A stretch of 64,000 nucleotides of DNA from an uncultured cyanobacterium (GCA_963719515.1 CAVRCJ010000001.1:223153-287152), one strand, 5' to 3'; shown: positions 3,487 through 45,701, counted from the stretch's first letter. Notes: generated by a model from the sequence alone, not told the origin. Numbers and translations: made by a program.

Positions 3487-4161
3487 ATGCGGCTGCTGTT
3501 GGTTGAGGATGATGTTCAGCTTGCAGACTCGCTGACCGAAATTCTAGAGTCTCAGCACTATATTGTCGATACCGTCAAAGACGGTGAATCCGGCTGGTGC
3601 CAAATGCAGCTGATGGAGTATGACCTAACGCTGCTGGACGTCACCTTGCCCTGCCTAGACGGCATTCGGCTATGTCAGCGTATTCGGGGGCAGGGGTACG
3701 GGCTGCCGGTGCTGATGTTGACGGCCCGCGACACCAGCGAAGACAAGGTGCGGGGCCTGGACTCGGGGGCGGATGCCTACATGGTGAAGCCCTTTGACCT
3801 ATCCGAGCTGCTGGCGCAGATCAGGGCATTGCTGCGCCGGGGTGGCTCGCCCCTCGCGAAGCGGCTGACCTGGAAAGAGCTGACGCTGGATCCAAGCACC
3901 TACGACGTGAGCTACGGCAGGCGGCCACTGCGGTTGACGCCCAAGGAGTTCTCTATCCTAGAGCTGTTGATGCGCAACGGACGGCGCGTTCTGAGTCGGG
4001 CCTTTGTTTTACAGTCGTTGTGGTCGATGCAAAGCCCGCCGGATGAGGAAACGATCAAGGCCCACATTAAGAGTTTGCGCTACAAGCTCAAGTCAGTGGG
4101 GGCACCTAAGGCATTGATTGAAACGGTCCACGGGGTAGGCTACCGGCTGCAGCAGCCCTAA
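3487..4161 (+). CDS. OmpR-family two-component response regulator
   Basis: MRLLLVEDD receiver start, D in LTLLDVTLP, ...LTARD..., and C-terminal winged helix (LTPKEFSILELLMRNGRRVLSR...VHGVGYRL). The ORF-track start at 3307 is an upstream extension, so the internal ATG at 3487 was chosen. Confidence 0.85.
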   Translation: MRLLLVEDDVQLADSLTEILESQHYIVDTVKDGESGWCQMQLMEYDLTLLDVTLPCLDGIRLCQRIRGQGYGLPVLMLTARDTSEDKVRGLDSGADAYMVKPFDLSELLAQIRALLRRGGSPLAKRLTWKELTLDPSTYDVSYGRRPLRLTPKEFSILELLMRNGRRVLSRAFVLQSLWSMQSPPDEETIKAHIKSLRYKLKSVGAPKALIETVHGVGYRLQQP

Positions 4162-4914
4162 TCGATCTGCGGCAGCGTCACCTGGAAGGTGGTGCCCTGC
4201 CCCACGGCGCTGCGATACGTCAGCGTCCCGTGGTGGAGCCGCAGGCAGGCGTTGACCACCGACAGCCCCAACCCCGTTCCCCCAACCTCACCCACGTTTC
4301 TCCCTCGGTAAAAGGCCTGGTAAAGGCGATCGCGATCGCGCTTGGGGATGCCAATGCCCTGGTCCTGCACTTCAAAGATAATTTGGTGGGACTGACGGGT
4401 GAGGGTGAGGGTCACCTGGGGGACAGGGCCAGAATACTTCACGGCGTTGGAGAGCAGGTTGGTCAAAATCGCCCGCAGCAGCTAGGGGTCAAGGTAGGCT
4501 TTGGCGTCACCGCTCGGTGATTTGGGCGGTGGGGCTGGTTTGGGCGCGGAGGGCGGCTTCAAAGCTGGGGCGATCGCCGTTGGTGATGACGGGAGCCCAT
4601 TCGAGGGCCTGGATGCCGGGGTAGGTGGCCAAAGCGCGCTGCACAAAGGCGTTGAAGCGATCGCGGGGAATGGGCTCTGGCGAGACGCGGTAGAAGTCGC
4701 CGAGGGCCAGCAGTACGTCGGTGTAGCGGTTGAGGCTGCGCTGCAGGGCGGTGGTGAGGCTGTCGGTTTGGCGCTGGAACTGGAGGCGATCGTGGGCCTG
4801 CTCCCAGCGGGCGACGGCCAGGCTGGCGGCGATCGATAGGCTGGTGCCGAGGAGGAGGGAGAAGGCGATTGGGGGGGTGAGGCGATGGAGGTATCGCAAG
4901 GGCGATCGCGGCAT
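4158..4914 (-). pseudogene. sensor histidine kinase remnant (CHASE-like N-terminal fragment plus HATPase_c C-terminal fragment, joined over an internal stop)
   Basis: ORF 4507-4914 encodes a TM segment plus YPGIQALEWAPVI (CHASE-like). ORF 4158-4466 encodes only the ATP-binding N-box/G-boxes (LLSNAVKYSG...DQGIGIP...GGTGLGLSVV). HisKA/H-box and linker are missing, and a TAG lies between the fragments. It is convergent with, and overlaps by 4 bp, the response regulator gene. Confidence 0.55.
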
Positions 4915-5019
4915 GGCGAGTAGCGATGGAGATATCGCGGGGGCGTTGGGTGTTGGGCGATCGGGGCGGTTGGGGCGATCGAGGTGTTGGGGCGGGTTTG
5001 GCTGGGAGGTTTTGGGATG

Positions 5020-5080
5020 TTCAGATATGTTACTGCTAAACCCGCCTGTACGGTGGGGAGGGGCGGTTGGGGAATTGGGA
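5020..5080. repeat. REP-like sequence copy (gctaaacccgcc[t/c]gtacggtg...)
   Basis: Same ~35 bp motif as at 5862-5900 and 6130-6170. It lies immediately 3' of the RAYT gene. Confidence 0.5.
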
Positions 5081-5082
5081 AA

Positions 5083-5628
5083 TTAGGGGCGGCGGGATTT
5101 TTGTTGCCATGCGGTGGGGTTGGCCTGGATATAGCGTTGGATGTTTTGCATGGCGATCGTGTCGCGAATGATGCGTTCGTAGAAGTTGCGCTGCCAGACG
5201 GAGAGTCCTGGCGTTTGGCGGATTTGGTTGATGCGTCGGGTGGAGAATGTCTTGAAGCCGCGAATGATTTCGGAAATGCTGTGACGCTTTGGGCGATTCT
5301 CCTGCGGAGATGCTGCGCAAACGCCTTTTGAAGGGGGCAGATCCATGCTGGACGGGTCGTGGTCGAGAATCAAGATACCATGCATGTGGTCGGGCATGAT
5401 GATGAATTCGTCGAGGGTTAGATGCCGATGGTGTTTTGGTAGTTTCATCCAGTGGCCTCGGGCGGTTCGTCCGATCTGGTTGAGCTGCATTTCGCCGTTG
5501 ATGACTTTGCCAAAGAGGCGATCGCGCCGGTAGGCGCAGATGGTAATGAAGTAGGCTCCGGCGGAGGTGTAGTCGTAGCCTTTGAGGCGGATTGAGCGGC
5601 GGTGGTGTCTTTGGGGGTCGTATTTCAT
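5083..5628 (-). CDS. REP-associated tyrosine transposase (RAYT, IS200-like TnpA_REP)
   Basis: MKYDPQRHHRRSIRLKGYDYTSAGAYFITICAYRRDRLFG..., HUH motif PDHMHGILIL, and catalytic Y in QRNFYERIIRD. The ORF-track frame extends 107 codons further upstream into the repeat array, so it was trimmed to the ATG at 5628. Confidence 0.75.
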   Translation of the reverse strand: MKYDPQRHHRRSIRLKGYDYTSAGAYFITICAYRRDRLFGKVINGEMQLNQIGRTARGHWMKLPKHHRHLTLDEFIIMPDHMHGILILDHDPSSMDLPPSKGVCAASPQENRPKRHSISEIIRGFKTFSTRRINQIRQTPGLSVWQRNFYERIIRDTIAMQNIQRYIQANPTAWQQKSRRP

Positions 5629-5689
5629 GAGTTGGCGTTTGGATGCATCCGTTTGCAGGATGCCCAAATGGCGCGAATCGCGAGAGGGG

Positions 5690-6245
5690 AGGATGGGCGA
5701 TGAGAATTTCGGAGGGGCGAGATGGGCGATCGCGTGGTGCGTGGATGGGGGATGGGAATTTCGGAGGGGCGAAAGGGGCGATCGCGCGGTACGTGGATGG
5801 GCGATGAAAATTTCGGAGGGGCGGGTTTGGCAGTAACGTTTTGGGCTGTTCCGATAGTTGCGGCTAAACCCGCCCGTACGGTGTGTGGAGGGGCGTTTGG
5901 GGGGATGAATTCGTGGGGCGATCGCGCGCAGCGAATTTATCGTATTCATTGCAGAATGATGGAGGGGCGATAAAAGTTTCGTCGGGGTGGGATGGCGATC
6001 GCGTGGCGCATGGATGGGCGAGGGGAATTTTGGAAGGGCGAGAGGGGCGATCGCGCGGCGTATGGATGGGCGATGAGAATTTCGGAGGGGCGGGTTTTGC
6101 AGTAACGTTTTGGGCTGTTCCGATAGTTGCGGCTAAACCCGCCCGTACGGTGTGTGGAGGGGCGTTTGAGGGGATAAATTCATGGGGCGGTCGCGTCGAT
6201 GCATCATGGAATTTGGCGTTCGTGTAGCGAATGCGCAGCATTATC
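5690..6245. repeat. two tandem ~270-bp repeat units, each with ~60-bp sub-repeats (gggcgatcgcg..gtggatggg...tttcggaggggcg) and a terminal REP-like motif
   Basis: Direct comparison of 5693-5960 with 5985-6240 shows near-identical blocks, including ggtttggcagtaacgttttgggctgttccgatagttgcggctaaacccgcccgtacggtgtgtggaggggcgtttg. Confidence 0.7.
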
Positions 6246-6262
6246 GCGTAGCATTTATCGCA

Positions 6263-6631
6263 TCAGGGCATTTTTGATTTGGAAGATGGCATCGGATGAG
6301 GGGGCGAGGCTTCCGTTGATCCAGCGGTTGATGTTGTAGGCGGCGGCGCGAAGATGATGATGAAGGTGGCGTGGGGGATGAGGCGACGTAGGGTGCGGCA
6401 GTGGGCGTCGGCGTCGTTGCGTTTGCGGAAGCGGGCGACGGTGATGCGCTGGGCGTTTGGCAGCAGGCGGATGATGCACCAGGGGTGGAGCTGCTGGCGG
6501 TAGGATTCTGCGGCGAGGCGAGATGTTGGTACCATGGGGGAATATTCCCCGCTTTTGCGGGGTTTGAGAGATGGCAACTGCCCGAAACTTGCCGGTGGGA
6601 GACAGTTGCCTTTGTGTTGCATAAGTCTCAT
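6263..6631 (-). CDS. hypothetical protein (weak; frame ambiguity with overlapping 6255-6635 ORF)
   Basis: Two overlapping reverse ORFs with no recognisable motifs. It is divergent from the XRE gene. Confidence 0.2.
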   Translation of the reverse strand: MRLMQHKGNCLPPASFGQLPSLKPRKSGEYSPMVPTSRLAAESYRQQLHPWCIIRLLPNAQRITVARFRKRNDADAHCRTLRRLIPHATFIIIFAPPPTTSTAGSTEASPPHPMPSSKSKMP

Positions 6632-38058: not shown

Positions 38059-38840
38059 GTGCCAGACGATGACTCCCGAGGCTGCTTGCGCTTGAGCGCC
38101 AACGTCTCCTACGCCCAAGCAGCAGATGACGTGGAATACCTCATAGGGGTTCGAGTTGCTGCTAAGACTCAGCAGCGCATCGTGCAACGCCAGGCGTTTT
38201 GCCCTCCTGCAAGGCAGCAGCTTAAAGAAGTTAGCGTCGACGGCGGGAAAGTGCGGCTGAGAATAGCGCTAGGAGAGCCTTGCAGATGGAAAGACTACAA
38301 AGCAGTTGACACTGATGAGGGTGTTGTCGTGGCCAGCTACCGGGACAACGCTACCCTGACGCAGTGGGTCAGCAACCGCTCTCAGCGCCTTTGACGGCTC
38401 TAGGCAACGGGCATGACGGGGTATGAAATATCGTCAGCCAGATGAGCACCTCAGACCAAAGGCGTGAGATTCTCGACTGGTATCACCTGGTGGAAAACCT
38501 GCACAAGGTGGGCGGCTCTGTCAGACGGCTCAACCGAGCCGAGGCCCTGCTATGGCAAGGAAAGGTAGATGAGGCTATAGCACTATTCGTTGGCCTTAAG
38601 CGCCGGGAGGCAAAGAACTTCTACAACTACTTGTGCAAGCATCGCCACCGCATCATCAACTATCACTACTACCAGCAAGAGCAGATTTGCTCTATTGGTT
38701 CTGGGGCTGTTGAGTCAGCTATCAAGCAGGTAGGCCGCAGAGTCAAGATCTCAGGAGCGCAATGGAACGAAGAGAACGTCCCTCAGGCGCTGGCGCATAG
38801 GCGCGCTTATCTCAACGGCCTGATTGGTTTACAAAGGTGA
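38059..38840 (+). mobile_element. ISKra4-like transposase fragments (two ORFs, internal and C-terminal pieces)
   Basis: ...VSVDGGKVRLRIALGEPCRWKDYKAV..., ...ILDWYHLVENLHKV...; 5' part is missing. Confidence 0.45.
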
Positions 38841-39719: not shown

Positions 39720-40199
39720 TTAGGAAGCGATCGCTTCGACTGGAAACTGAACTTCCACCACCATTTCTCCCTTATGGCCAGGCTCCGGTGGCACAATAAA
39801 GACCTCTCGACCTGGTCCAGTTAGTCTGTATTGATGGTTTTCTGCCCAGGTACCAATGGCGCTGTAAGAGAGATGGCCATTTTCAGGGCCCCCAAATCGC
39901 ATAGCCGTCACCGCCGTGGAAACGGCAGGTAATTCTCGGACCTTCATCACGGCATCTTGGGAGATGGTAACGGTGAGATCGAGACTTTGATTGAGCGAGA
40001 AACCAAACTCCAAGTCCTAGTTAGACTCTTCATACAGCTCTCCATGGATCACCGCCGCAAAACGCCCCAATGCTTTAGCTTCAACCTGCTCGGCCACCGC
40101 CTGTCTCATTTGGGAGATGGCAGCGAGGGCTTCAGTCAAGTCGCTGCAGGTGCGCCGCAGTGAGAGAAATGGTTGGGCAGGCAGGCTTTTCAAGACCAC
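39720..40199 (-). pseudogene. GyrI-like small-molecule-binding domain protein, split into two frames
   Basis: ORF 40017-40199 (N-terminal half) and 39720-40013 (GPGREVFIVPPEP...EMVVEVQFPV) are separated by a frameshift. Confidence 0.45.
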
Positions 40200-40411
40200 A
40201 TCGTCATCTTGAAATCGATATTACGGCTCGGACTCGGTTCAGCAATTACGAGCGGTTGGGGGTGCCGGAACTTTGGCGCTTTGACGGCACTGGCTTGGAA
40301 ATCTATGTGCTGCAGGAGGGGCGCTACACTCGCTCAGGCGAGAGCGCTCAGTTCCCTGGCTTTGCCCTGCCGCAGGTGATTCCAGAGTCTGTAGCGCAGA
40401 GTAAGACGTAG
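40160..40411 (+). pseudogene. Uma2-family endonuclease C-terminal fragment
   Basis: ...FSNYERLGVPELWRFDGTGLEIYVLQEGRY... matches the C-terminus of the intact Uma2 gene at 45126. Confidence 0.45.
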
Positions 40412-40625
40412 GGTAGGATGGCGACGATAAAGGCGTTTCGGCAGTGGGTAAATGCGAAGTGCTGACTGCCAGTTTAAAGGGGCACGGCGTGAGCGATGGT
40501 GTGCGGCTGGGGGCGAGGGACGAAGTCGTTCAGTAGTTATGGCCCTAACACAAAAAATCTGAAGAAATCTGGGAATGGACTGGATTGAGGGTGTAGCTTT
40601 AGAGATATCGTACCCTCGTCCTCTT

Positions 40626-41045
40626 ATGTCAACCAACGACACGCCTCAGTCGAATCGCTCTGTTCAGGTTGGCGGCAGCGTCACCGGCAGCGCCATCACG
40701 ACCGGAGACAACAACACAGTCTCAGTTCAGTTTCAGCCCGCCTCGCTGCCTCAACCAGAGACGGTTAATATTCAGGCAGAACTCAAGGCATTGCAGGCCA
40801 TTCTAGTCAGCCTAGATGACCCGATTGCCACTGGCGTGGCTCAGAAGCTGGAAGTGGAGGCGAGCAAGCCCAAGCCGGACAAAAGCGTTGTGGAGACGAC
40901 GCTAGAAACTGGGTTGACCTATGCCAAGAACCTATCGGGGTTTGCCGAGGCGATGTCTAAGCTGCAGCCCCACGTTGAGGCAACGGCGAGCTGGCTAGGA
41001 AAGCATGGCTATAAGCTGCTGCCTTTAGTTGGCCTGGCCCTTTAG
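40626..41045 (+). CDS. hypothetical protein sharing an N-terminal Gly/Ser-rich motif with the downstream NACHT-WD40 protein
   Basis: SVQVGGSVTGSAITTGDNNTVSV compares with the N-terminal SAVGSAIVSGSGNTVYV of the NACHT-WD40 protein. Ends 36 bp before that gene. Confidence 0.45.
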   Translation: MSTNDTPQSNRSVQVGGSVTGSAITTGDNNTVSVQFQPASLPQPETVNIQAELKALQAILVSLDDPIATGVAQKLEVEASKPKPDKSVVETTLETGLTYAKNLSGFAEAMSKLQPHVEATASWLGKHGYKLLPLVGLAL

Positions 41046-41080
41046 CAGCTTGAGGTGATCCGTATTAACCGAAAATTTCC

Positions 41081-44000
41081 ATGACTGACCCGTCTGACCA
41101 GAGTATCCGCATTAACGAAAGCGCTGTGGGTAGCGCCATTGTGTCTGGCAGCGGCAACACCGTCTATGTCATCCATCAAGCGCAGGCGCGGCAGCAAGAC
41201 CCGGTGCAGTCTGATGGTGGTGCTGGGCGAGCGTCTACGCAAATTGGCCCTAACCCCTACAAAGGGCTATCCGCCTTTCAAGAGCAAGACGCCGATCGCT
41301 ACTTTGGCCGGGAGGCGCAGGTGGCGCGGCTCTGGCAGCGGTTTCGTGAGCTGTATGAACAAGCCAATCGAGAGGATGCGCCGCCGCGATTTTTGCCTAT
41401 TTTGGGGCCTTCGGGCTGCGGGAAGTCGTCTTTGGCGCGGGCGGGGCTGATACCGGAGCTGGCCCGGCAGGCGGGGCAGATCGCTAAGGAAACCCTGCGG
41501 GTGGCGGTGCTGGTGCCGGGAGAGTCGCCGCTGAAAGCCTTGGCCGGGGTGCTGGCGAGGCTGACGCAAGATGACCAGACGCCAGAGGTGATCAAGAAGC
41601 GCAGCTACGAAAAAGACCTACGAGAGTCTGCTGCTGAGGGACGGTATGACTTTTTGCAGGACGTTGCCGAAACGCTATCCGATATCCACGTGACGCCGCT
41701 GGTGGTGCTGGTGGACCAGTTTGAGGAAATCTACTCGCTATGTAAAGACGCCAGCGATCGCCATACCTTTATCGAAACGCTGCTGCAGGCGGCGAGCAGC
41801 GCCACGGGCTACGTCACCGTTGTCATTACCCTGCGCAGCGATTTTTTGGCCGAAACCCAGCGCCACCCGCAGCTGAACCAAATCATTGGCTCTGACCGCA
41901 GCGTGATTGTGCCTGCGATGTCGGAGGCGGAGCTGCGGCGGGCGATCGCCCAACCGGCGATTCAGGCGGGGCATCCGCTGGATGATGCCGTGGTGGATTT
42001 GTTGGTGAAGGATACGGAGGGGCGGGAGGGGGCGCTGCCGCTGCTGCAGTTTGCCCTGACGCGGATTTGGGAGGGGCTGGGAGACGGGAAGACGGCTGCG
42101 GAGACCTACCGGGAGATGGATGGGGTGGGCGGTGCCCTGGCGGGGAAGGCGCAGGAGATTTATGACCGGCTGCCGGAGGCGGAGCAGGCGATCGCCCGAC
42201 GGGTGTTTGTGGGACTGGTGCAGCTGGGGGAGGGGACGCGGGATACGCGGCGGCGGGCAGAGGTGGAAACGCTGATGACCAGTCGCGATAAGCCGGAGGC
42301 AGTGAAGCAGGTGATTGGTCAGTTTTCGTCGCCGGGGGCGCGGCTGGTGACGCTGTCGGGGGAGGAGGGCCAGGGCGTTGCTGAGGTGACCCATGAGGCG
42401 CTGTTTGACCATTGGCAATTGCTGAATGACTGGCTGGATGCTAACCGCGACGATATCCGCTTTCAGCGGCGACTGGAGGCAGCAGCGGGGTATTGGGAGA
42501 AGCAGGGAAGGCCGGATGGGCTGCTGTGGCGGCCTCCAGATTTGGATTTGCTGCGGGGTTTTGCGCAGAAGGCGCAGCTAGACATGACCCCGCTGGCGAC
42601 TGACTTCTATGAGGCGGCAGATGCGGCTGAGCGGCAAGAAAAGCGGCGGCGACGGTTGAACCTCTATGGGTTGAGGGCTGGCTTAGTTGTTATGACAGTC
42701 CTCACCAGCTTTGCTGGATTCAAAGTCAACCAGGCTGGGCGCAGGCAAATGCAATATTACGCTGAGAGGGCAGAGAATCTCGGCAGTTCTGACCCACTCC
42801 GTAGCCTTGTCAATGGCTTAGCCGCCATCCAGCTCAGTCGTTCAACCCTTCTTAAAGCCCCGTTTGTCTGGCAGTCTTCGCGTTTCACCTCAGCCATTCT
42901 AGATATACCCAACCGAACAAAGCGCTTTGGTTATGGAATGGGCCATTCATCTCGGGTTCGTTCAGTTGCCATCAGCACCGACGGCCAGACCATCGTCAGC
43001 GGTAGCGATGATGATACGGTGCGGCTGTGGGACCGGCAGGGCAACCCCATCGGCCAGCCCTTCAGCCATTCATCTCGGGTTAATTCAGTTGCCATCAGCA
43101 CCGATGGCCAGACCATCGTCAGCGGTAGCGTTGATGGGACGGTGCGGCTGTGGGACCGGCAGGGCAACCCCATCGGCCAGCCCTTCGAGGGCCATTCATC
43201 TTGGGTTAATTCAGTTGCCATCAGCACCGATGGACAGACCATCGTCAGCGGTAGCTTTGATAATACGGTGCGGCTATGGGATCGGCAGGGCAACCCCATC
43301 GGCCAGCCATTCGAGGGCCATTCATCTGAGGTTAATTCAGTTGCCATCAGCGCCGATGGCCAGACTATCGTCAGCGGTAGCCGTGATAGAACAGTGCGGC
43401 TGTGGGACCGGCAGGGCAACCCCATCGGCCAGCCCTTCGAGGGCCATTCATCTTCGGTTAATTCAGTTGCCATCAGCACCGATGGCCAGACCATCGTCAG
43501 CGGTAGCTCTGATAATACGGTGCGGCTGTGGGACCGGCAGGGCAACCCCATCGGCCAGCCTTTCAGGCATTTAGATTCGGTTTATTCAGTTGCCATCAGC
43601 AACGACGGCCAGACCATTGTCAGCGGTGGCCTTGATAGAACAGTGCGGTTGTGGGACCGGCAGGGTAACCCCATCGGCCAGCCTTTCGAGGGACATTCAT
43701 CTTTGGTTAATTCAGTTGCCATCAGCAATGACGGTCAGACCATTGTCAGTGGTAGCAGTGATGATACTGTGCGGCTGTGGAACCGGCAGGGTAACCCCAT
43801 CGACCGGCCTTTTGAAGGTCATTTAGATTCGGTTTTGTCAGTTGCCATCAGCAACGACGGTCAGACCGTCGTCAGCGGCAGCAGTGATAGAACGGTGCGG
43901 CTGTGGGACCGGCAGGGCAGCCCCATCGGTCAGCTGCTTGAGGGACATTCAGATTCAGTTAGTTCAGTTGCCATCAGCAACGACGGCCAGACCGTCGTCA

Positions 44001-44791
44001 GTGGTAGTGTGAATGGAACGGTACGGCTGTGGGACCGGCAGGGCAGCCCCATCGGCCAGCCTTTCAGCCATTCGGATTATGTTCATTCAGTTGCCATCAG
44101 CAACGACGGTCAGACTATCGTCAGCGGTAGCACTGACAGAACGGTACGGCTATGGGACCGGCAGGGCAATCCCATTAGCCAGCCTTTTGAAGGCCATTCA
44201 TCTTCGGTTTTGTCAGTCGCCATCAGCAACGACGGTCAGACTATCGTCAGCGGTAGCATTGATAATACGGTGCGGCTATGGGATCGGCAGGGTAGCCCCA
44301 TCGGCCAGCCTTTCAGTCATTCAGATTCGGTTTATTCAGTTGCCATCAGCAACGACGGTCGGACCATTGTCAGCGGTAGCTTTGATAGAACGGTACGGCT
44401 GTGGGACCGGCAGGGTAACCCCATCGGCCAGCCTTTTGAAGGCCATTTATCTCGGATTAGGTCAGTTGCCATCAGCACCGACGGCCAGACCATCGTCAGC
44501 GGTAGCATTGATAATACGGTGCGGCTGTGGGACCGGCAGGGTAACCCCATAGGCCAGCCGCTCAAGGGTCATTCATCTTCGGTTATGTCAGTCGCCATCA
44601 GCACCGACGGCCAGACCATTGTCAGCGGTAGCTTTGACAAGACGGTGCGGCTGTGGCCTATATGGCTATCAAGTGGCTGGATTCCCTACACCTGCGATCG
44701 CCTCAAAGGATACCTGTTAGTCGTTGGCCAAACCGACGATGACGCCGCCCGCGAAGCCCTCCGAGCCTGCCGCCGCTACGCCTGGAAATAG
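41081..44791 (+). CDS. NACHT-family STAND NTPase with 14 C-terminal WD40 repeats
   Basis: Walker A ILGPSGCGKSSLARAG, and Walker B LVVLVDQFEEIY. A long helical region is followed by 14 WD40 units of the GHSS.V.SVAIS.DGQTIVSGS.D.TVRLWDRQGNPIGQPF type. Confidence 0.85.
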   Translation: MTDPSDQSIRINESAVGSAIVSGSGNTVYVIHQAQARQQDPVQSDGGAGRASTQIGPNPYKGLSAFQEQDADRYFGREAQVARLWQRFRELYEQANREDAPPRFLPILGPSGCGKSSLARAGLIPELARQAGQIAKETLRVAVLVPGESPLKALAGVLARLTQDDQTPEVIKKRSYEKDLRESAAEGRYDFLQDVAETLSDIHVTPLVVLVDQFEEIYSLCKDASDRHTFIETLLQAASSATGYVTVVITLRSDFLAETQRHPQLNQIIGSDRSVIVPAMSEAELRRAIAQPAIQAGHPLDDAVVDLLVKDTEGREGALPLLQFALTRIWEGLGDGKTAAETYREMDGVGGALAGKAQEIYDRLPEAEQAIARRVFVGLVQLGEGTRDTRRRAEVETLMTSRDKPEAVKQVIGQFSSPGARLVTLSGEEGQGVAEVTHEALFDHWQLLNDWLDANRDDIRFQRRLEAAAGYWEKQGRPDGLLWRPPDLDLLRGFAQKAQLDMTPLATDFYEAADAAERQEKRRRRLNLYGLRAGLVVMTVLTSFAGFKVNQAGRRQMQYYAERAENLGSSDPLRSLVNGLAAIQLSRSTLLKAPFVWQSSRFTSAILDIPNRTKRFGYGMGHSSRVRSVAISTDGQTIVSGSDDDTVRLWDRQGNPIGQPFSHSSRVNSVAISTDGQTIVSGSVDGTVRLWDRQGNPIGQPFEGHSSWVNSVAISTDGQTIVSGSFDNTVRLWDRQGNPIGQPFEGHSSEVNSVAISADGQTIVSGSRDRTVRLWDRQGNPIGQPFEGHSSSVNSVAISTDGQTIVSGSSDNTVRLWDRQGNPIGQPFRHLDSVYSVAISNDGQTIVSGGLDRTVRLWDRQGNPIGQPFEGHSSLVNSVAISNDGQTIVSGSSDDTVRLWNRQGNPIDRPFEGHLDSVLSVAISNDGQTVVSGSSDRTVRLWDRQGSPIGQLLEGHSDSVSSVAISNDGQTVVSGSVNGTVRLWDRQGSPIGQPFSHSDYVHSVAISNDGQTIVSGSTDRTVRLWDRQGNPISQPFEGHSSSVLSVAISNDGQTIVSGSIDNTVRLWDRQGSPIGQPFSHSDSVYSVAISNDGRTIVSGSFDRTVRLWDRQGNPIGQPFEGHLSRIRSVAISTDGQTIVSGSIDNTVRLWDRQGNPIGQPLKGHSSSVMSVAISTDGQTIVSGSFDKTVRLWPIWLSSGWIPYTCDRLKGYLLVVGQTDDDAAREALRACRRYAWK
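42927..44650. repeat. 14 tandem 120-bp repeats (WD40-coding) with very high nucleotide identity
   Basis: Each repeat recurs almost base for base, and differences cluster at 4-5 codon positions per unit. Confidence 0.8.
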
Positions 44792-45125: not shown

Positions 45126-45701
45126 ATGGTTGCCACCCAAAACTCTCCCCAGCTCACCCCCAACGAATACCTCGCCTGGGAACCCCAACAGTCTCAAAAC
45201 TACGAATACATCGACGGCCAAGTCTACGCCATGGGCGGCGGTAGCGTTAACCACAGCCGCATCGCCGTCCGCCTCACCGCCCTCCTCGACAACCATCTAG
45301 CAACCACCGACTGCATCACCGGCAACTCAGACCTGAAAGTCAACATCGCCGAAACAGACAACTACACCTACCCCGACCTCAGCGTCACCTGCGACAAGCG
45401 AGACCAGGCCACTACGCAATACATCACCTATCCCTGCCTAATCATCGAAGTGCTCTCAGAGAGCACCGAAGCCTATGACCGAGGTGGAAAGTTCCGCCTC
45501 TACCGCAAAAATCCGGTTCTGCAAGATTATCTCTTGGTTAGCTCCACCCGCATCGAAATCGACCTTTATCATCAAAACGAAGCAGGCCAGTGGATTATCC
45601 TCAACTACCAGCCTGGCGACACTGTCGAACTCAAAAGTATCCAGCTCAGCTTCCCTATTGAGCAAATTTATCGTGATCTCGCCCTTGCCACAGATAAATG
45701 A
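45126..45701 (+). CDS. Uma2-family (DUF820) restriction-endonuclease-like protein
   Basis: ..NYEYIDGQVYAMGGGSVNHSRI.., ...YPDLSV.., ...LIIEVLSESTEAYDRGGKFRLY... matches the PD-(D/E)xK-like Uma2 pattern. Confidence 0.75.
   Translation: MVATQNSPQLTPNEYLAWEPQQSQNYEYIDGQVYAMGGGSVNHSRIAVRLTALLDNHLATTDCITGNSDLKVNIAETDNYTYPDLSVTCDKRDQATTQYITYPCLIIEVLSESTEAYDRGGKFRLYRKNPVLQDYLLVSSTRIEIDLYHQNEAGQWIILNYQPGDTVELKSIQLSFPIEQIYRDLALATDK

Follow-up and report, generated by a model that had tools for sequence, protein, structure and literature searches.

A short N-terminal motif common to a cyanobacterial nSTAND1-WD40 receptor and its small upstream partner: a candidate amyloid-type signalling pair with inverted topology

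Introduction

Why should a small protein and the large NLR-type receptor encoded immediately downstream of it begin with the same short stretch of sequence? This question is raised by a locus of an uncultured cyanobacterium (GCA_963719515.1, CAVRCJ010000001.1:223153-287152), from which a continuous stretch of 64,000 nucleotides, hereafter the window, was analysed. Amyloid-type signalling from a receptor to an executioner is among the few principles of immune signalling that are common to animals, fungi and bacteria. To our knowledge, the bacterial catalogues of such signalling contain only C-terminal motifs of Bell-type effectors whose partners are NB-ARC or NACHT proteins. The C-terminal location of the effector-side motif has been stated as a rule (PMC12261475; Dyrka et al., 2020, bioRxiv 10.1101/2020.01.06.895854), and the screen of Dyrka et al. 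(2020) was confined to NB-ARC and NACHT proteins on one side and to Bell C-termini on the other, so that the nSTAND1 pair described here was undetectable in it. The motifs of these BASS systems are biased in composition, with Q, N, G, V and I enriched and K, P and L depleted, and show beta propensity. Could the pair in the window be another incarnation of the same principle?

Two collinear genes

The small partner gene occupies positions 40626..41045 on the plus strand, an open reading frame of 139 amino acids (aa) followed by the stop codon. The ATG at 40626 is backed by about 100 homologues of 139 aa; the alternative upstream ATG at 40575 would yield a protein of 156 aa, the additional N-terminal stretch of which is not conserved. 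A spacer of 35 nt (41046..41080, plus strand) separates this gene from the collinear receptor gene (41081..44791, plus strand, 1236 aa). Thus, the first-pass annotation of this DNA correctly placed the small gene just upstream of the receptor gene, with a gap that has to be corrected from 36 nt to 35 nt (the stop codon ends at 41045 and the receptor gene starts at 41081). The two genes are probably co-transcribed. No recognisable defence island surrounds the locus in the window.

The small protein consists of the shared motif, a helical bundle and a conserved C-terminal tail, in that order. Its N-terminus is polar (MSTNDTPQSN...) and includes no hydrophobic helix. The motif, delineated by profile matches, spans aa 10-37 (40653..40736, plus strand; NRSVQVGGSVTGSAITTGDNNTVSVQFQ) and is predicted by AF2 to be disordered in the monomer (pLDDT<50). 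A bundle of four or five helices follows at aa 43-139 (40752..41042, plus strand) and ends in the tail, W123-L139 (40992..41042, plus strand; WLGKHGYKLLPLVGLAL). Among 49 diverse family members, W123, L124 and G125 show no or almost no variation, and the WLG...LLPLVGL tail is always located at, or a few residues from, the C-terminus of the protein. The mean Kyte-Doolittle hydropathy of the tail is +1.35, compared with -0.3 for the body of the helical domain; in both length and hydrophobicity the tail falls below a classical transmembrane helix. Scanning with 19-residue hydropathy windows detected no transmembrane segment in the helical domain, the maximum for the entire small protein being 1.06, and fold comparison of this domain yielded generic matches only, so that any effector activity attributed to it is a guess. 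The small protein has no match in Pfam, NCBIfam or PADLOC.

The receptor comprises the motif, a linker, an nSTAND1 NTPase, a hydrophobic segment and 14 WD40 repeats. The receptor-side motif, identified by BLASTP and profile matches, spans aa 6-33 (41096..41179, plus strand; DQSIRINESAVGSAIVSGSGNTVYVIHQ) and is modelled by AF2 as three beta strands (9-13, 19-23 and 26-32; pLDDT 68-78), after which a disordered linker is predicted at aa 37-51. The NTPase module (41255..42517, plus strand; aa 59-479; AF2 pLDDT about 90) matches the nSTAND1 family of Pfam, PF20703, with E=3.4e-113 and 379.5 bits against a gathering cut-off of 27.1, and NACHT (PF05729) is absent from the 25 best Pfam families listed for this protein. 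The earlier designation of the receptor as a STAND NTPase with WD40 repeats is accordingly upheld, but the label 'NACHT' suits it only if taken loosely, as meaning a STAND or NLR-like protein. Some sources refer to close relatives of the receptor as 'NACHT and WD repeat domain-containing protein'. The WD40 sensor array (42940..44656, plus strand) is encoded by a 126-bp tandem repeat present in 13.7 copies with 85% matches (Tandem Repeats Finder), and Pfam recognises WD40 in 14 stretches; the only strong PADLOC match to the receptor falls on this repeat region. A Pfam scan revealed no effector domain of the receptor's own.

A significant and specific motif

Both peptides originally singled out as alike are present in the two proteins, and their likeness is significant in a profile search. 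In a pairwise BLASTP comparison, the motifs align without gaps, with 12 identities in 26 positions (E=2e-5). A one-sided hidden Markov model (HMM) of 32 positions, derived exclusively from 91 distinct small-protein motifs without any receptor sequence, retrieved the N-terminus of the window receptor from 5,087 six-frame ORFs with E=3.1e-6 (24.8 bits), and receptors of other loci in the same database with E-values between 5e-11 and 3e-5, the first unrelated match appearing at E~1. An iterated motif HMM produced 190 matches with i-E<1e-3 on 115 sources, and every tenth match of the sorted results passes from 2.5e-6 through 1.2e-3 to 4.3, so that the matches are well clear of noise. A database search with a 44-column profile of the receptor motif returned only 9 short fragments and was uninformative on architectures.

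Within the small-protein family, G18 of the motif is conserved in 100%, N21 in 98% and R2 in 91% of the sequences; on both sides of the pair, G18 is conserved at 100% and N21 at 97-98%, the invariant residues being G27 and N30 in the small protein and G23 and N26 in the receptor. Conservation of the motif is higher inside each class than between partners. The nucleotide identity of the two coding stretches is only 54%, and different codons are used at 7 of the 12 identical residues, so we reject a DNA repeat as the source of the likeness.

The motif of about 28 aa is all that the two proteins have in common: the helical domain is missing from the receptor, and among 120 nSTAND1 homologues there is no fusion with it, the motif part alone producing matches. 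The shared stretch had been characterised as Gly/Ser-rich, a description that we would replace with N/G/V/I/S/T-rich. In the motif, N is enriched 2.5-2.7x, G 1.7-2.2x, V 1.8-1.9x and I 1.4-2.4x, K, P and L are present at <=0.3x, and Q is enriched (1.3x) on the partner side only. The motif is neither hydrophobic nor signal-peptide-like, and across 114 related loci and the 64-kb window it was found only in the motif-bundle module and at the N-termini of partner STAND proteins.

Conservation of the pair and spread of the module

The motif opens the next downstream gene (same strand, <=400 nt) in 70 of 108 informative loci, and a motif-bearing partner is found anywhere in the locus in 77; for 38 of the 108 module genes there is no adjacent motif partner. 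Among the non-redundant partners, 29 of 34 are nSTAND1 proteins, and the other five possess motif-DUF4062-NACHT-FGE or motif-CHAT-AAA_16-TPR architectures. Seen from the receptor side, the motif is present in 96 of the 120 closest nSTAND1 homologues, in 91 of these within the first 40 aa. The motifs of cognate pairs are more similar to each other (identity 0.45) than those of non-cognate proteins (0.386; permutation p about 5e-5), as exemplified by the L034 pair, RSVSIGRDAVGSSIVTGDHN and RSVTIGRDAQGNIIATGDHN.

The small protein has 146 homologues at E<=0.01, most of them of 139 aa, and the family amounts to 419 clusters at 50% identity (E<=1e-3, 1.84 billion representatives searched); a metagenome scan was run with a 14-sequence subgroup of the family alignment. 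The range of the family extends to Pseudomonadota, including Salinarimonas. A search of viral contigs found no relative, and an origin from phages was rejected on these grounds. The module consisting of motif and bundle is also fused behind TIR (TIR_2), CHAT, EAD1-Trypsin_2 and pentapeptide membrane proteins; one family member, P0227, joins it with EAD1 and trypsin. In such fusions, the motif sits inside the protein, at a distance of 150-600 residues from the N-terminus, but still N-terminal to the bundle, which accompanies it in every family member examined. Hence the notion of an N-terminal module holds for both window proteins but not for the fusions. The literature searched yielded no account of the module, nor of an effector-side motif located at the N-terminus, an absence that is not a proof of novelty. 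Taken together, the pairing in 70 of the 108 loci, the STAND partners, the closer cognate motifs and the fusions to TIR, CHAT and EAD1-trypsin support the initial conjecture that the shared segments may be adaptor or effector pairing domains.

A pertinent comparison is afforded by two sister nSTAND1 receptors that were examined, which share 55% and 58% identity with the window receptor and have a different N-terminal motif. Each is preceded, about 15 bp upstream, by a gene the small product of which (144-150 aa) has a hydrophobic helix at the N-terminus (MDPATLTAFLAPFLP...) and, at the C-terminus, a motif matching that of the receptor. Judged by architecture, these sister pairs represent the Bell/BASS arrangement. 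Comparison of the window small protein with a sister partner, typed as Bell by architecture only, gave an hhalign probability of 1.8%, so that no homology of the helical domain to this Bell-type partner was found.

Comparison with known signalling systems

The nearest precedent for this pairing is BASS signalling of the amyloid type, not adaptors of the globular kind such as the effector-associated domains (EADs). The Bell/BASS/NLR pairs that Dyrka et al. (2020) described in filamentous bacteria and archaea likewise consist of a helical protein of about 120-150 aa encoded directly upstream of, and collinear with, a WD40 or TPR STAND protein, and a motif of about 25-30 aa, in which G, N, V and I are abundant and K, P and L scarce, recurs in the small protein and at the very N-terminus of the NLR; such pairs occur in cyanobacteria, and the sister receptors described above use exactly this arrangement. 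A motif of about 20-40 aa shared by the N-terminus of an NLR and a protein of the adjacent gene, as expected of a BASS/ASM pair, is indeed present here (about 28 aa, 35-nt gap, same strand, 70/108 loci), the composition is of the expected kind, and beta strands are predicted by AF2 in the receptor copy. However, the effector-side motif is not at the C-terminus but at aa 10-37 of 139, before the helical domain. Furthermore, the small protein is no Bell domain in the sense of a helical protein of about 120-140 aa that has a hydrophobic helix at the N-terminus, an acidic residue at position 2-3 and homology to Bell sequences. Bell proteins carry the hydrophobic helix at the N-terminus and the motif at the C-terminus, whereas the window partner has the motif at the N-terminus and a hydrophobic element at the C-terminus; its helical domain shows no detectable homology to Bell-type partners, and the NTPase is nSTAND1.

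A similar mixture of likeness and inversion emerges from two further systems. In HET-S/NWD2 of Podospora anserina, an NLR whose WD40 repeats are highly identical to one another has a short N-terminal motif homologous to the prion-forming region of the adjacent small helical executioner, and a flexible motif abuts a helical bundle; there, however, HET-S carries a duplicated motif at its C-terminus and the membrane-inserting helix at its N-terminus, and the system is eukaryotic, employs a NACHT NTPase and is experimentally validated, whereas the window pair is known from sequence analysis. The Bab/Agp antiphage system of E. coli (BASS11; bioRxiv 10.1101/2024.11.07.622273) also consists of two adjacent genes with a common amyloid motif, the small helical protein is the executor of cell death, and the motif is additionally found with TIR, CHAT and NACHT proteins. 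Unlike the case at hand, the Bab motif is C-terminal, the sensor Agp has a TPR-GreA/B-PIN architecture rather than a STAND NTPase, and the system resides in a prophage defence hotspot, whereas the window locus lies outside a defence island and has no detected relative on viral contigs.

The membrane-associated EACC1 system of two genes (Kaur et al., 2020), in which a large multidomain gene lies 3' of a small one, was considered because it is reported to include nSTAND1 at times. What defines this system is one conserved transmembrane helix in the 5' protein, with small residues forming a patch at its centre, and motif sharing between its two proteins has not been described. Membership was rejected given that the small protein has no transmembrane helix by hydropathy and no Pfam match.

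An inverted amyloid-type signalling pair

The hypothesis that seems to accommodate these observations best is that the two genes form an NLR signalling unit of the BASS/HET-S type in which the motif family and the partner domain are new and the topology is inverted; we assign it a probability of roughly 0.55. The motif would be new relative to the described families BASS1-11, the comparison with BASS motifs being one of size, composition and beta propensity. By analogy with known STAND NTPases, the nSTAND1-WD40 protein would act as the sensor: binding of a ligand to the WD40 array would cause the NTPase to oligomerise and gather the N-terminal beta motifs, which might then adopt a stacked beta-arch fold and template the homologous motif of the small protein encoded upstream. 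Polymerisation of the small protein on the receptor would switch on its C-terminal four-helix bundle, the sole candidate output domain of the locus. If one is to guess, membrane-directed toxicity via the freed hydrophobic C-terminal tail is the likeliest output, with the tail conceivably mirroring the N-terminal helix of Bell/HeLo domains. In other genomes, the TIR, CHAT, trypsin or pentapeptide-membrane domains located ahead of the module would be activated by the same induced polymerisation. Physical pairing of the two proteins, amyloid-like templating and an output in cell death or defence are what we infer.

This hypothesis is favoured by the significant, in-register likeness of the motifs, the conserved pairing and the NLR-like nature of the partner STAND NTPases; by a motif size and an N/G/V/I-rich, K/P/L-poor composition resembling those of known amyloid signalling motifs; by the predicted state of the motif, disordered in the partner monomer and a beta meander on a disordered tether in the receptor; and by the absence of the helical domain from the receptor, the closer cognate motifs, the Bell-type proteins in the corresponding slot of the sister systems and the fusions to immune effectors. 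Against it stand the higher conservation of the motif within each class than between partners, the modules devoid of an adjacent partner, and the lack of a defence island, of relatives on viral contigs and of a PADLOC model for the small protein. In addition, BASS motifs recombine with varied effectors whereas the present motif always comes with the bundle, so that motif and bundle could be one functional domain, the N-terminal strands of which may merely resemble those of the receptor; and the receptor motif, for which AF2 proposes a small beta meander with moderate confidence, could be a mini-domain with a fold of its own and not a segment prone to amyloid formation.

A bolder extension, which we put forward tentatively and consider somewhat more likely to fail than to hold, is that the bundle with its WLG...LLPLVGL tail is a hitherto unrecognised cell-death execution and receiver domain, functionally analogous to Bell/HeLo in mirror image. 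This domain would be switched on by prion-like templating from the N-termini of nSTAND1, NACHT or CHAT-STAND proteins and, in cyanobacteria and some Pseudomonadota, would also serve as a portable receiver coupling TIR, CHAT, trypsin and pentapeptide-membrane effectors to these receptors in trans.

Alternative explanations

Among the alternatives, the one that survives best, although we regard it as rather unlikely, is that the motif acts as an adaptor without amyloid character. It would form a small beta structure of defined shape, through which receptor and partner pair stoichiometrically by beta-sheet augmentation, and would recruit the partner in the manner of the EADs or Death-fold adaptors of bacterial conflict systems, without open-ended templated polymerisation. 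The architectural regularity of EAD1-11 (Kaur et al., 2020, PMC7159879; 2021, PMC8195603), for which nSTAND1 is named as a core NTPase (PMC8195603), is reproduced here: one copy resides on the core NTPase and others on effector-type proteins (TIR, caspase/CHAT and trypsin in the EAD systems), usually in adjacent genes, with adjacent copies closer to each other. The predicted three-strand meander of the receptor motif fits such an adaptor as well, and P0227, carrying EAD1 and trypsin along with the module, places the latter in the EAD ecosystem. However, EADs are small globular, mostly alpha-helical domains, whereas the shared piece here is a beta motif of only about 28 aa, for which AF2 predicts disorder in the partner; neither protein matches an EAD model of Pfam at E<=1, and the helical bundle is not common with the NTPase. 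The composition, moreover, agrees with amyloid signalling motifs, and in the sister receptors the same slot is filled by the Bell/BASS arrangement.

Alternatively, the small protein could be a regulator that caps or sequesters the receptor motif, similarly to an antitoxin or a guard, and thereby silences the receptor or tunes its threshold. Such a role would be in line with the upstream location and probable co-transcription of the gene, with a helical domain devoid of recognisable catalytic or membrane features and with those partner receptors that bring their own effector (CHAT or DUF4062). Yet neither the window receptor nor most of the nSTAND1 partners bring an effector domain themselves, so that this interpretation leaves the system without an output; the fusion of the module downstream of TIR, CHAT and trypsin effectors fits a receiver better than an inhibitor, and the sister systems hold a Bell-type executioner architecture in the analogous slot. 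We consider a regulator improbable.

More improbable still is a shared targeting, processing or degradation signal (for the membrane or thylakoid, a protease or an N-degron) that entails no interaction between the proteins. Although the motif is N-terminal in both window proteins and the hydrophobic segment behind the NTPase might bring the receptor to a membrane, the internal position of the motif in the fusions, its non-hydrophobic character, its confinement to the module and the partner STAND N-termini, and the covariation of cognate pairs all speak against such a signal. Finally, chance or compositional likeness of two low-complexity N-termini, or a by-product of a DNA repeat, is effectively refuted: the richness of both segments in G, S, N and V does inflate naive similarity, but the profile E-values of 3e-6 to 5e-11 against noise at about 1, the gapless register with its conserved G18 and N21, the pairing kept in 70 loci and the divergent codons leave no room for it.

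Implications

The amyloid-type reading of the pair, should it prove correct, has several consequences. A sizeable family would have been invisible to the earlier screens, having the motif on the other end of the partner, a different partner domain and mostly an nSTAND1 receptor. The direction of coupling between a templated motif and its output domain would not be fixed. The bundle would become a new candidate executioner or receiver domain, with attachments to TIR, CHAT and trypsin effectors as well. Being small and self-contained, the pair lends itself to direct testing. In practical terms, the combination of the motif HMM with the WLG tail would provide a rule by which many cyanobacterial gene pairs that are currently annotated as 'hypothetical protein / AAA ATPase' could be recognised as NLR signalling units.

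Anatomy and neighbourhood of the gene pair

The pair consists of two collinear ORFs on the + strand, one encoding a small protein of 139 aa (40626..41045) and the other, 35 nt 3' of it, a receptor of 1236 aa (41081..44791). The small-protein start is placed at ATG 40626, because about 100 cyanobacterial homologues of 139 aa each align from residue 1; the alternative ATG at 40575 was rejected, the N-terminal extension it adds not being conserved. In the receptor, an N-terminal segment of ~58 aa precedes an nSTAND1 STAND-NTPase module (aa 59-479; Pfam E=3.4e-113), which is followed by a spacer, a hydrophobic segment (aa 528-547, window 42662-42721; LYGLRAGLVVMTVLTSFAGF, with RRRR directly before it) and fourteen WD40 repeats. 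The name "NACHT-WD40" used in the first-pass annotation thus holds only loosely, for an NLR-like STAND protein with WD40 repeats, because the NTPase module itself matches nSTAND1. The hydrophobic segment, with a 19-residue hydropathy of 1.47, is borderline for a transmembrane helix; as a membrane-spanning segment, it would put the NTPase on one side and the WD40 sensor on the other. The WD40 region coincides with a tandem DNA repeat (window 42940-44656; 126-bp unit, 13.7 copies, 85% nucleotide identity), with differences concentrated at a few positions per blade; NLR sensor arrays that diversify rapidly typically have such highly conserved internal repeats.

The neighbours of the pair are genes for MAPEG, a GyrI-like fragment, Uma2 and a FAD monooxygenase, with ChlH further away. 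Uma2-family putative endonuclease genes adjoin receptor pairs both here (window 45126-45701) and at L115 (1976-3154, 6368-6826), an unrelated sister locus with three Uma2 copies, and an ORF just upstream of the small gene (window 40160-40411) resembles a Uma2 tail by eye, with no Pfam match; the association may be recurrent or coincidental. Rearrangement upstream of the pair is suggested by two neighbouring + strand ORFs (window 38059-38840; 111 and 132 aa), which resemble, by eye, fragments of a broken transposase-like gene and have no Pfam match at E<=1e-3, together with the truncated GyrI-like ORF (window 39720-40013).

A motif shared between partners

Is the resemblance between the two N-termini, on which the first-pass annotation was built, real? 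The two peptides quoted there do share a motif, which aligns without gaps between aa 10-37 of the small protein (NRSVQVGGSVTGSAITTGDNNTVSVQFQ) and aa 6-33 of the receptor (DQSIRINESAVGSAIVSGSGNTVYVIHQ), with 12/26 identities (BLASTP E=2e-5). The profile search, named beforehand as the observation that could overturn the claim, upheld it: an HMM built from 91 distinct small-protein motifs alone, without receptor sequences, and run against 5,087 six-frame ORFs from the window and 33 related genomic loci, matches the receptor both in the window, at its N-terminus (E=3.1e-6), and at other loci (E 5e-11 to 3e-5), with unrelated ORFs appearing from E~1. After iteration and the addition of 80 metagenomic loci, the motif HMM yields 190 instances at i-E<1e-3, with a clear gap to noise. 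The coding stretches are 54% identical at the DNA level and use different codons at 7 of the 12 identical residues; the similarity exists at the protein level.

Positions common to both sides include R2 (91-92%), G18 (100%) and N21 (97-98%), and each class has its own flavour, module copies (a module being motif, helical bundle and C-terminal tail) tending to "IGGxVTGS" and cyanobacterial receptor copies to "IxESAVGS". Motif identity to the own partner averages 0.45 vs 0.386 for non-cognate combinations; because none of 20,000 pairing permutations reached the observed identity, p is about 5e-5, a statistic that rests on 37 non-redundant but phylogenetically related pairs. A clear cognate case is provided by locus L034 (NRSVSIGRDAVGSSIVTGDHN and ERSVTIGRDAQGNIIATGDHN).

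The small protein and its family

AlphaFold2 assigns pLDDT <50 to residues 1-34 of the small protein, motif included (25-sequence alignment), and confidently predicts a four/five-helix bundle for residues 36-139 (pLDDT 82-90). In the family consensus, a conserved "LPxPExVDI" junction leads from the motif into helix 1, and an invariant W-L-G is followed by a hydrophobic tail, KLLPLVGLxL, at or a few residues from the C-terminus; the tail (mean hydropathy +1.35 vs -0.3 for the protein body) does not reach the length of a classical transmembrane helix. Neither Pfam nor NCBIfam nor PADLOC has a match for the small protein. An exhaustive HMMER search of 1.84 billion representative proteins delineates a family of 419 clusters at E<=1e-3 (252 at E<=1e-10) that reaches beyond cyanobacteria, to a Pseudomonadota MAG and Salinarimonas; no relatives were found in the viral contigs searched.

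Most members are stand-alone proteins of 130-145 aa, and many others are larger proteins that end in the module, behind N-terminal parts that include TIR_2, CHAT, CHAT + TIR, EAD1 + Trypsin_2, and a multi-transmembrane pentapeptide-repeat region in proteins of ~740 aa. The latter (L012 4168-6393; also L008, L013, L017, L022, L024, L025 and L026) consist of pentapeptide repeats, a Gly/Ala-rich multi-transmembrane block, further pentapeptide repeats, a conserved 'CDYVYLLRNQQERRP...IENKGDGVVVVKL', a coiled coil and the C-terminal module, and no motif-bearing receptor is found within 6 kb of them; at L021, L027 and L028 the module is a separate gene directly after a pentapeptide-type protein. Several proteins carry more than one motif copy, namely a small protein with a partial internal duplication (L023 5998-6444; …TGDGNSIVIGDGNQSRVEFQ), P0343 with two overlapping N-terminal copies and P0377 with a second copy near residue 611-639, reminiscent of pseudo-repeats in HET-s and in some BASS motifs.

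Conservation of the pairing

Our survey covered 113 module-encoding ORFs in 115 sources, 108 of them with enough downstream sequence. A motif partner is present anywhere in the locus in 77 of these 108, and the unpaired cases are mainly pentapeptide and CHAT fusions, with some orphans. Several genomes with a fusion, including some with the ~740-aa type, or with an orphan module also hold a full pair elsewhere: Leptolyngbya CCNP1308 (pair L009, fusion L017), Nodosilinea AN01ver1 (pair L014, fusion L022) and Nodosilinea P-1105 (pair L016, orphan L010).

Non-redundant partners number 34: 29 nSTAND1 NTPases, 12-14 of these with WD40 arrays, and five motif-DUF4062-NACHT-FGE or motif-CHAT-AAA_16-TPR proteins. 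A recent report describes DUF4062 as a TIR-like NADase, and diversity-generating retroelements often target FGE domains. Motif-DUF4062-NACHT partners occur at L050 (1409-4507), with an added C-terminal FGE-sulfatase/C-type-lectin-like domain, and at L054 (8853-10403), seen only up to the locus boundary, before its C-terminus. Some clusters hold more than one receptor: at L054 one module gene is followed by two different motif-bearing receptors; at L014 (11186-12556) and L016 (11295-12554) another nSTAND1 gene carries the N-terminal motif as well and lies behind the first receptor, giving one small partner and two receptors; and at L020 a CHAT-module fusion lies between two motif-bearing receptors, one divergent. 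Of the 120 nSTAND1 homologues closest to the window receptor, 96 carry the motif, 91 of them within the first 40 residues, and in this set of 120 the module HMM matches through its motif part only, never through the helical domain.

Sister systems and a possible mechanism

The most telling evidence for amyloid signalling comes from nSTAND1 receptors that lack this motif. Most such homologues carry another ~30-aa N-terminal element rich in G, N, Q and V, which reads "QQDVxGDRNQTIGQVLGGMVVYVSGGQAI". Genomic context was fetched for two of them (receptors at 4001-6220 and 4001-6370), and in both a small protein of 144-150 aa is encoded ~15 bp upstream (L115/L116 3533-3985; L117 3553-3987), with a hydrophobic N-terminal helix (MDP...), a helical middle and the receptor's motif at the C-terminus ("TQIVQHVTGNQNQVIGQVTGGKVIGNITGNV"). 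The same architecture has been described for Bell-domain/BASS/NLR pairs (Dyrka et al., 2020); it is a canonical amyloid-signalling arrangement, here with an nSTAND1 receptor, which the published NB-ARC/NACHT screen would have missed. The window protein shares with these partners slot, size and motif sharing with the same receptor family, but its order is opposite, with the motif first, then the bundle and the conserved hydrophobic element last, and homology between the two is not detectable (hhalign probability 1.8%).

From the observed shared motif, conserved adjacency, partner identity, architecture and sister systems, we proceed by analogy to a model of templated, amyloid-type assembly, to which we give a probability of roughly 0.55. 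STAND NTPases are known to oligomerise when their repeat array binds a ligand, which clusters the N-termini; a ligand on the WD40 array would, in keeping with this established behaviour, cluster the receptor motifs. By analogy with HET-S/NWD2, Bell/NLR and Bab/Agp, these might fold as a stacked beta structure that templates the partner motif, so that the partner polymerises and its output domain is switched on. More speculatively, the bundle could damage membranes by releasing the C-terminal tail, and polymerisation could activate the TIR, CHAT and trypsin fusions by bringing them into proximity.

Several findings count against templating. Motif conservation is higher within each class than within pairs, about one third of module genes lack an adjacent partner, and the window pair lies amid ordinary genes, outside a defence island. 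Furthermore, motif and bundle occur together in every family member examined, so that they may form one domain. The main rival is a non-amyloid, stoichiometric adaptor resembling the effector-associated domains (EADs). It is favoured by the possibility that the receptor copy, for which AlphaFold2 predicts three short strands (pLDDT 68-78), is a small folded beta unit; we consider this rival somewhat unlikely. Amyloid signalling is preferred because of the sister Bell-type pairs, the location of the receptor motif at the extreme N-terminus, with a disordered linker (aa 37-51) between motif and NTPase, and the composition of the ~28-aa motif (N, G, V and I up; K, P and L down), the same bias that is reported for bacterial amyloid signalling sequences and beta-solenoids.

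The earlier suggestion of adaptor or effector pairing itself gains support from the STAND NTPase partners, the fusions to effector domains and the adjacency: in 70/108 loci, a large ORF on the same strand has a second motif at its N-terminus, starting <=400 nt downstream. A small protein acting as regulator or inhibitor of the receptor appears improbable, and a motif that is a shared targeting signal still more so; given the one-sided profile matches, chance similarity is negligible.

The principle that N-terminal motifs of NLRs are matched in adjacent small helical proteins is known. Effector-side motifs are currently stated to lie at C-termini (PMC12261475), and the original bacterial screen was confined to C-termini of Bell proteins with an NB-ARC or NACHT neighbour (bioRxiv 10.1101/2020.01.06.895854). 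The coupling logic is set out in the EAD papers, which name nSTAND1 but describe neither this motif nor this bundle (PMC7159879, PMC8195603). Because our literature search found no description of the family and Pfam, NCBIfam and PADLOC hold no model of it, we rate as new the motif family, the partner domain, the inverted topology and the mostly nSTAND1 receptors. The finding extends a known paradigm without overturning it, is large in scope, concerns an unannotated family and is directly testable.
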